The notes under the pieces are model-generated. The model searched no databases, was not told the origin of the DNA, and saw only the letters and a program-made list of their open reading frames with translations. The position numbers and the translations under genes were made by a program. From Desulfomonilia bacterium (GTDB lineage: Bacteria; Desulfobacterota; Desulfomonilia; UBA1062), in the NCBI GenBank assembly GCA_963664325.2, contig CAXXDQ010000004.1, positions 256,001 through 320,000 on the forward strand: DNA of 64,000 nt, in the 5' to 3' direction. The stretch's first letter is position 1, and the number at the start of each line of letters is the position of its first letter. Shown one piece after another: positions 2,501 to 3,391 of this stretch.

Positions 2501-3391
2501 TTATGCAAATGTTGATATCTTTTCTTTAAGGACTACTGCAAAATCTTCACCTTTCACTTTGTTATTCTTCATTTCCTTCAAGTCATCTATATCTACTATT
2601 AGTATCAGCCTTGCCTCCGTTCCTATTTGTCTGTAGAATATTTTTCTAAGTAATTCCCAAATGGGATCGTTTTTCCCGGGCATAGTCCTGCAAATCAATA
2701 GAGTGAGCGGCACGTTTGACAACACTGTATCCTGAAAGTACAAAGTATATTTGAAGCATTGCATAAGATCATTAGTAACAGGTTTCTTGTTTTTGCACTC
2801 TACAATCAGTCTGTTGAACTTGTAGCCAACTCGTATAGCTGGTTCAAATTGATCCCGTAATCTTTCTCTTATTTGATAACAGCCATCTAATTTTAAGTTT
2901 CGACTTCTCCATTGAGGAGGATCAATCCGAATCAATTCTTCTTGAAATAAACAATCAAAAAAATAGATCACATAACTTTCAAATATTTTGCCATCTTCGC
3001 GATGTCCCAAAGGGGCAGTTTTGACTTTATCAAATGCATCCTCTACTTGTTGATTCACAAAACCACATGCAAGATCAAAATCATAAAGAATACTATCTAC
3101 TTTTTTTTGTATTCGTTGGAACAATTGCTTAGTTTTCTCAGGGTTCAATGTGAATCTTTGTATAAGGACTTCAACTTCTGCCATTTTATTATTTAATCGT
3201 TCAGTAGTAATTTTAAAGTTTTTAAAACAAGACATTGCACTAATAGGTTCTTTCAACATACTTCGATATTGTTCTACAGCTTTTGAACAACCACATTCTT
3301 CCAGACTCTCTCGAAAGATGTTTATTAGTTCAATTTCATGCTGATTTAAATCAGCTAAATACCTTTCTATGAAAACATCATTAGCTTCCAT
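2501..3391 (-). CDS. PD-(D/E)XK (Mrr/restriction-endonuclease-like) nuclease with an N-terminal helical domain
   Basis: GKIFE (E138), LKLDG (D169), IVECKN (E198/K200) and QCFKY (QxxxY) occur in the canonical order. Confidence 0.7.
   Translation of the reverse strand: MEANDVFIERYLADLNQHEIELINIFRESLEECGCSKAVEQYRSMLKEPISAMSCFKNFKITTERLNNKMAEVEVLIQRFTLNPEKTKQLFQRIQKKVDSILYDFDLACGFVNQQVEDAFDKVKTAPLGHREDGKIFESYVIYFFDCLFQEELIRIDPPQWRSRNLKLDGCYQIRERLRDQFEPAIRVGYKFNRLIVECKNKKPVTNDLMQCFKYTLYFQDTVLSNVPLTLLICRTMPGKNDPIWELLRKIFYRQIGTEARLILIVDIDDLKEMKNNKVKGEDFAVVLKEKISTFA

Follow-up and report, generated by a model that had tools for sequence, protein, structure and literature searches.

DNA cutting in type III CRISPR systems is thought to proceed in two ways, either through the HD domain of Cas10 or through ancillary nucleases in which a cyclic-nucleotide sensor is built in or is formed by the nuclease itself. 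Can1, Can2 and Card1 are type III ancillary DNases of the PD-(D/E)XK superfamily with a CARF domain in the same chain. NucC is a restriction-fold nuclease linked to type III systems and also to CBASS; it has neither a CARF nor a SAVED domain and is activated by cA3. The catalytic modules of FokI and of the BspD6I enzymes, built on a PD...(D/E)xK core, are without DNA specificity and act only as dimers or together with a partner. PMC6546367, PMC12669027 and PMC11229360 describe nucleases recruited to class 1 complexes (the HNH protein Csx26 in III-G and a PD-(D/E)xK-Cas11 fusion in I-E3), a fusion of NucC to Cas10, and NucC in the III-A2 variant.

The gene analysed here, which we call X, can be set against each of these systems. 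It encodes a nuclease of the same superfamily as Can1, Can2 and Card1, likewise in a type III locus, but it has no CARF domain: the CARF of its cassette lies on the neighbouring protein, fused to a nucleoside deoxyribosyltransferase-like (NDT-like) domain. X shares with NucC the restriction fold, the linkage to type III and the lack of CARF and SAVED, but the two superpose at an rmsd of 4.4-4.6, and X, unlike NucC, has a further domain at its N-terminus and is encoded within the core operon. The FokI/BspD6I enzymes, whose PD...(D/E)xK core it shares, are its best structural match; however, identity to them is only ~13%, X matches no Pfam restriction-enzyme family, a helical bundle stands where these enzymes have their DNA-recognition domain, and the context is CRISPR rather than restriction-modification. 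X is sensor-less and lies among core genes, as do the Csx26, I-E3 and NucC-Cas10 nucleases, which the same papers present as proposed riders on the complex, yet X is a separate protein and the Cas10 of its cassette keeps an active cyclase motif. Lastly, X occupies the operon position of Csm5, straight after csm4, but it has no RAMP fold and no match to TIGR01899 or PF03787, being made instead of a bundle and a restriction fold. Crn4, considered as a precedent for a PD-(D/E)XK ring nuclease, was dropped from the comparison, as its available description gives it a new fold. No description of the X family turned up in the literature searches or in passages of PMC6546367, PMC12669027 and PMC11229360, whose figures or supplements could list it, and none of the cas-associated profiles of PADLOC matches X. 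We describe X as a sensor-less effector nuclease in a core slot of an undescribed III-A variant that lacks both Csm5 and the Cas10 HD domain.

A type III-A-derived cassette with X behind csm4

The window, that is the whole 64,000-nucleotide stretch of Desulfomonilia DNA that was analysed, carries the cassette on its minus strand. It consists of cas6 (8206-9264; PADLOC Cas6 7e-111), cas10/csm1 (5727-8120; TIGR02578 5.7e-115, from model position 92), with an intact GGDD palm and a missing or degenerate HD segment, csm2 (cas11; 5276-5761; PF03750 1.9e-21, TIGR01870 above cut-off), csm3 (cas7; 4368-5255; TIGR02582 7.6e-49), csm4 (cas5; 3410-4360; TIGR01903 1.9e-69), X itself (2501-3391; 296 aa, stop codon 2501-2503), which encodes a helical bundle followed by a PD-(D/E)XK nuclease, and its module partner, the 334-aa CARF-NDT gene (1484-2488), recognised through Pfam, PADLOC, an AF2 model and Foldseek. 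The type III-A equivalogs TIGR02578, TIGR01870, TIGR02582 and TIGR01903 are all above cut-off. The ATG of X has a Shine-Dalgarno-like GAGG just 5' of it, 18 nt separate X from the csm4 stop and 12 nt from the start of the CARF gene, and the GC content is 32-42% in the cassette versus 50-57% in the flank beyond ~9.5 kb. A preliminary description of this DNA, made by reading the letters and open reading frames, had given the 18-nt and 12-nt gaps, an AT-rich cassette, and csm4 and a CARF gene on either side of X; the open reading frame coordinates, the base composition and the family matches bear it out, and the neighbours are confirmed as Cas6, Cas10, Csm2, Csm3, Csm4 and a CARF protein whose C-terminus is NDT-like. 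A scan for promoters and terminators gave no signal above that of shuffled sequences (promoters 21 versus 25.2 expected; terminators 7 versus 4.8). The genome to which the window belongs (G000) holds a single Cas10. X is a dedicated part of a rare type III-A-derived cassette composed of cas6, HD-less cas10, csm2, csm3, csm4, X and CARF-NDT.

Predicted fold and active site of X

The AF2 model of X, built from a 15-sequence alignment, has a pLDDT of 89 and a pTM of 0.85, and shows four long helices over residues 2-124 followed by an alpha/beta domain over residues 131-296. The N-terminal four-helix bundle (residues 1-125; 3017-3391, minus strand) is fast-evolving, with a mean pairwise identity of 16.5%, against 37.6% for the C-terminal PD-(D/E)XK domain (residues 130-296; 2504-3004, minus strand). 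In the latter, the order of elements in the model (H131-148, E153-155, E170-174, E194-200, H206-218, E229-234) is that of the PD-(D/E)XK core. This alpha-beta-beta-beta-alpha-beta core is present in full (2p14 Z 12.2, FokI Z 10.9), and the catalytic D...(D/E)-x-K residues D169, E198 and K200 lie on strands 2 and 3.

We compared residues 113-296 of the model with 48,161 PDB representatives using VIA-align. The best match was the small subunit of R.BspD6I (Z 12.2, 149 aa aligned, rmsd 3.2), followed by Nt.BspD6I (Z 11.3) and the FokI cleavage domain (Z 10.9), and the FokI/BspD6I set as a whole (Z 10.8-12.2, 149-155 residues aligned, rmsd 3.0-3.3) exceeded the other nuclease rows by 2-3 Z units. 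AF1548 (Z 8.9), NucC (8.2-8.4) and NucS (7.5-8.2) came lower. Rescoring the Foldseek top 1000 gave the same order and placed the type III ancillary DNases at Z 7.2-7.8 (Can1 7.8, Card1 7.5, Can2 7.2-7.4), beside Cdn1 at 7.3. Foldseek itself returned nothing at E<=1e-3 from the PDB or BFVD, its best rows (E only 1e-2) being Nt.BspD6I, NucC, FokI and NucS. As judged from the predicted model, the nearest solved relatives of X are thus the non-specific cleavage modules of type IIS enzymes. The N-terminal bundle (residues 1-118) matched only generic helical bundles at Z<=10, a range that is uninformative for this tool, and hhalign of the X alignment against that of the cassette's Csm2 gave a probability of 0.2.

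The family alignment comprises 31 members, mostly full-length. D169 (codon 2885-2887, minus strand), the catalytic Asp, is found in 31/31 sequences; in the (D/E)xK motif E198-C199-K200 (2792-2800, minus strand) both E and K are found in 31/31 and C in 30/31; and in Q211-x-x-x-Y215 (2747-2761, minus strand) Q is found in 31/31 and Y in 30/31. The residues invariant throughout are D169, E198, K200, N201, Q211, P228 and R235, while F137, V141, C199, Y215 and P238 are kept in 30 of the 31. Position 138 is E or Q in close relatives and more varied across the wider family; E138 is therefore, on this alignment, no conserved catalytic residue.

Searches of X against Pfam, NCBIfam and PADLOC gave no family match at E<=0.1 beyond helical noise, and no CARF, SAVED or NucC; the same searches do detect CARF in its neighbour. 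PF13366 is touched only by distant relatives of the nuclease domain, one at 23.4 bits (cut-off 22) and one at 19.2 bits, below it. The sequence profile of X found nothing but helical-bundle noise in the PDB, and the ESM Atlas gave leads only, to Mrr_cat-type clusters (scores 0.88-0.90). In the preliminary description X was a PD-(D/E)XK nuclease with a helical N-terminus of about 120 aa, no recognisable CARF or SAVED domain, and E138, D169, E198-x-K200 and QxxxY as catalytic motifs. The fold, the strand order, the invariant catalytic residues and the all-helical N-terminus agree with this, as does the outcome of the Pfam, NCBIfam and PADLOC searches; the motifs are all where they were placed, and D169, E198, K200 and Q211 proved invariant, whereas E138 did not hold up. 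The term 'sensor-less PD-(D/E)XK nuclease' stands as a description of X, and alignment and model together predict a catalytically competent two-domain protein.

A rare family in a constant neighbourhood

A word-index search of 5.8 billion proteins found 6 relatives of X (7 proteins with X), and HMMER found 32 among 1.84 billion cluster representatives at E<=1e-3, of which 23 were at <=1e-10 and 7 at <=1e-30; nearly all 32 are ~300 aa long. With relatives at E-values as low as 3e-66 and a conserved active site, X is, by these comparisons, a real conserved gene, beyond chance. No tblastn match was found on plasmids. X is absent from 6 genomes of the same family, and two 401-genome phylum samples gave only weak matches, limited to the nuclease domain and lying in otherwise unrelated proteins. 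This distribution, together with the low GC content of the cassette, points to horizontal transfer.

Scanning contigs of genomes and metagenomes gave 11 loci with X, which reduce to 8 distinct loci besides the window (L007 repeats L001, L005 repeats L004 and L008 repeats L009). The order cas10-csm2-csm3-csm4-X is found in 7/7 cassettes with an upstream flank (the window, L001, L002, L004, L006, L009 and L011); the contigs of L003 and L010 end at X and offer no upstream flank. A CARF gene with a TIR/NDT-like C-terminus directly follows X in 9/9, the copy in L011 being truncated. The architecture is unchanged in the L009-L011 group, in which X is only 24-34% identical to the others. Hence the circumstance that the preliminary description had named as fatal to its reading, namely homologues mostly unlinked to cas genes, is not what the loci display: every flanked one is the same cassette. 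Indirect linkage was sought with the best 120 of 165 matches to CARF-NDT. For 12 of 20 X clusters, the longest contig is equal in size and source to that of a full-length CARF-NDT homologue; the 8 clusters without such a partner among the matches listed are on short contigs (6 on contigs <=3.6 kb, 2 on contigs of 6.4-7.1 kb). Further pairs of X and CARF-NDT are P0003/P0040, P0005/P0062 (adjacent locus tags) and P0035/P0101.

At L001, a CD-NTase (PADLOC 7.8e-88) and a NucC (1.7e-99) are encoded at 12594-14093, ~700 nt downstream of the CARF-NDT gene. They are a CBASS pair beside the type III cassette, and the locus is in a defence island.

X coincides with the loss of Csm5 and of the Cas10 HD segment

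TIGR01899 detected no Csm5 in 3/3 host genomes, namely G000, which is 95.6% complete, and the holders of L001 and L002 (G401 and G402). A search with the L001 Csm4 in 401 genomes of that organism's phylum retrieved 10 other genomes at 32-38% identity, of which 9 were examined (G749 was left out). Of these nearest canonical relatives, 9/9 have behind csm4 a Csm5 that scores above cut-off; at L037 the Csm5 comes after a 99-aa open reading frame and looks split. The placing of X in the csm5 slot by the preliminary description is thus supported, X lying directly after csm4 where all nine relatives have csm5.

Cas10 differs in parallel. In the canonical relatives (n=6) the Csm1 model matches from position 3-5, and HDIGK is present near the N-terminus in 5/6, whereas in X-linked Cas10 the match starts at 87-94, without HDIGK, in 4/4. 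Residues 1-145 hold no His that is invariant across six X-linked Cas10 proteins; alignment to a solved Csm1 shows the GGDD palm to be intact in them. That the Cas10 of the window is HD-less, as first proposed, agrees with its match beginning only at model position 92 and with this lack of an invariant His; the co-occurrence check suggested at the time likewise gives four HD-less X-linked Cas10 proteins in four, against HDIGK in five of the six relatives. The gain of X, as read from gene content, coincides with the loss of Csm5 and of the HD segment. These losses and this gain belong to one clade and are in effect one evolutionary event. In the Cas10 of one canonical relative, L031 (2670-4979), YNIGR replaces HDIGK and Csm5 is nevertheless retained, so that HD inactivation and Csm5 loss are separable. 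An HD domain is found in only 437/1113 type III loci according to PMC11229360; HD-less Cas10 being that common, a replacement DNase is in principle unneeded.

X and CARF-NDT are exchanged together

The CARF-NDT protein matches CARF_Card1 (3e-6) and Nuc_deoxyrib_tr (8.5e-4) in Pfam as well as CARF models of PADLOC. Its AF2 model (pLDDT 91) has Foldseek matches to two CARF domains, those of Cam1 and T. thermophilus Csm6 (~1e-9), and, at its C-terminus, to the NDT 8qc0 (2.7e-4); this C-terminus is nucleoside 2'-deoxyribosyltransferase-like, DNPH1/Rcl being touched weakly by sequence. E281, within NVYYELG, is invariant and of the nucleophile type. In the 401-genome phylum sample the full architecture occurs only in the X-bearing genome, while 72 other genomes have a match, in most of them to the NDT-like domain alone and in three rows to the CARF part only. 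Joined to many different N-terminal partners, the NDT-like domain (L039-L047 and others) occurs in proteins that are 160-790 aa long, the pattern that a promiscuous effector or toxin domain would show. Its wide occurrence in other architectures without X indicates that it is generally independent of X. CARF-NDT looks like an undescribed cyclic oligoadenylate (cOA) effector in its own right, its full architecture being as rare as X.

Protein identities between cassettes reveal an exchange. Between L001 and L004 they are 95% for cas6, 94% for cas10, 98% for csm2, 99% for csm3 and 96% for csm4, and fall to 75% for X and 77% for CARF-NDT; between L001 and L002 they are 80, 80, 93, 96 and 82% for the same five core genes, in contrast to 97% for X and 98% for CARF-NDT. 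In a sliding comparison of 200-nt segments the left breakpoint falls at 9799-9999 of L001, where X begins at 9989; the right one falls just past the CARF stop (11879), beyond which L001 is again L004-like (96-99%). Judging by these breakpoints, a single recombination event swapped exactly X and CARF-NDT. The two genes, exchanged together by recombination, therefore form a two-gene effector module, and the swap between cassettes means that X variants 25% apart serve near-identical cores. A complex prediction for X and CARF-NDT, run without controls, scored 0.00 against a mark of 0.32, which is uninformative either way.

How X may be switched on

The cassette has neither of the known routes to DNA cutting, as HD is lost and the nuclease is sensor-less. 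The explanation that we favour, though tentatively, is that X is a partner-gated DNase arm recruited either by the Csm complex or by cOA-bound CARF-NDT, to each of which we give about half of the weight. X would be the DNA-cutting arm of the cassette and, having no nucleotide sensor, would be gated through contact with a partner protein: recruitment through its helical domain, either to a Csm complex that has bound target RNA or to oligomers of CARF-NDT with bound cOA, would place two nuclease domains close enough to act together. Partner gating is favoured because the active site is invariant in all 31 sequences despite the low identity of the N-terminal domain; because the best structural matches are modules dependent on dimerisation or a partner, with cOA-regulated nucleases ranking lower; and because of the missing sensor domain, the fixed synteny, the joint loss of Csm5 and HD and the exchange of X with CARF-NDT. 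The evidence points towards two options of the preliminary description. Docking on Csm in replacement of the HD DNase fits the co-occurrence of X with the loss of Csm5 and HD, and switching on by CARF-NDT, direct or at the level of the substrate, fits the recombination of the two genes as a unit; that the NDT-like domain is common elsewhere without X speaks against an NDT product diffusing to X as its signal. The narrower proposal, in which the helical domain anchors X to the Csm ribonucleoprotein where Csm5 or HD has left a vacancy, is possible but doubtful. Tight co-adaptation of X with Csm is not evident, since X variants 25% apart work with near-identical cores.

Partner gating is opposed by the example of NucC, a restriction-fold nuclease that senses cOA without a separate domain, and in Csx23 a helical domain is said to sense cA4. 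X might likewise, as in the third option of the preliminary description, sense cyclic oligoadenylate itself, through a site in the helical bundle or, NucC-like, where nuclease domains meet in an oligomer; it would then be a free collateral DNase working alongside CARF-NDT. The intact GGDD palm motif of Cas10 and the common fold with NucC are consistent with such sensing, and a ligand site could be lined by R235, N201 and P228, which are invariant though not part of the catalytic triad. We nevertheless consider it unlikely: the PADLOC NucC models PDLC00745 and PDLC01051, which match the L001 NucC (1.7e-99), miss X, as do the other effector models, and the N-terminal domain varies too much to hold a conserved ligand pocket. 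Moreover, whereas shufflable cOA effectors are scattered over Cas10 clades according to PMC12669027, X was seen in one cassette type only, always within the operon and before the CARF gene. The constant adjacency and joint exchange of X and CARF-NDT would also suit gating at the level of the substrate, in which cOA-activated CARF-NDT strips bases from DNA or otherwise damages it and X is a lesion-specific endonuclease that needs no sensor. The NDT-like domain retains E281 and resembles DNPH1 and NDT, a DNA-directed role is proposed for NDT toxin domains in PMC3710099, and the lesion-specific PD-(D/E)XK enzyme NucS/EndoMS has the same fold as X. Action of CARF-NDT on polymeric DNA is, however, conjecture, and the NDT-like domain occurs without X in most of the 72 genomes, so that it seems sufficient alone; we hold this mechanism to be improbable.

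X stands in the csm5 position, Csm5 being absent from all three hosts and present in this slot in all nine relatives, and could have taken over a job of Csm5, capping the complex or trimming the 3' end of the crRNA, rather than being an immune effector; this appears quite improbable, as X is no RAMP protein, has another fold and is swapped with an effector gene, not with the core. Joint travel in a single module, as seen for X and CARF-NDT, is what one would expect of an effector and its regulator, and X might then be an off-switch, a ring nuclease that degrades cOA and resets CARF-NDT. We know of no ring nuclease with a PD-(D/E)XK fold, and the closest structures to X are DNA endonucleases, which makes this role very unlikely. 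Least credible of all is a passenger or inactive remnant without immune role, given catalytic residues that are invariant across ~25% identical sequences and an operon position that is fixed.

The cassette is an undescribed minimal III-A variant in which Cas7 is single and Csm5 is missing, and the way in which X is gated would reveal a new complex-riding effector, an effector machine made of two proteins, or a cOA sensor of a new kind. Were docking on the complex true, X would represent a new way of type III DNA cutting without the Cas10 HD domain, by a module exchangeable between complexes, and the cassette would encode a crRNA-guided complex that nature has armed with a FokI-type nuclease, capable of transcription-coupled RNA-guided DNA cutting. 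An exchangeable complex-riding nuclease module would be of interest to tool builders.

Array, Csm2 extension and flank

The CRISPR array of the window (546-1288, no strand assigned) has 10 repeats of ~37 nt at a spacing of 75-81 nt. The reverse complement of its repeat ends in ATTGAGAC, which we take to be the 5' tag; the array is therefore probably transcribed on the strand of the cas genes, downstream of the CARF gene. TIGR00287 found no Cas1 in G000 (95.6% complete, 9 contigs), which thus has a 10-repeat array without a detected adaptation module. The Csm2 proteins of the X-bearing clade, 151-162 aa long, have a strongly conserved N-terminal extension of ~40-60 residues before the Pfam Csm2 domain, which could be a clade-specific docking surface. 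Just past cas6, in the GC-richer flank, lies a staphylococcal-nuclease-like gene (9412-9906, minus strand; PF00565 3.9e-25) with a hydrophobic N-terminus, which is probably unrelated to the cassette.
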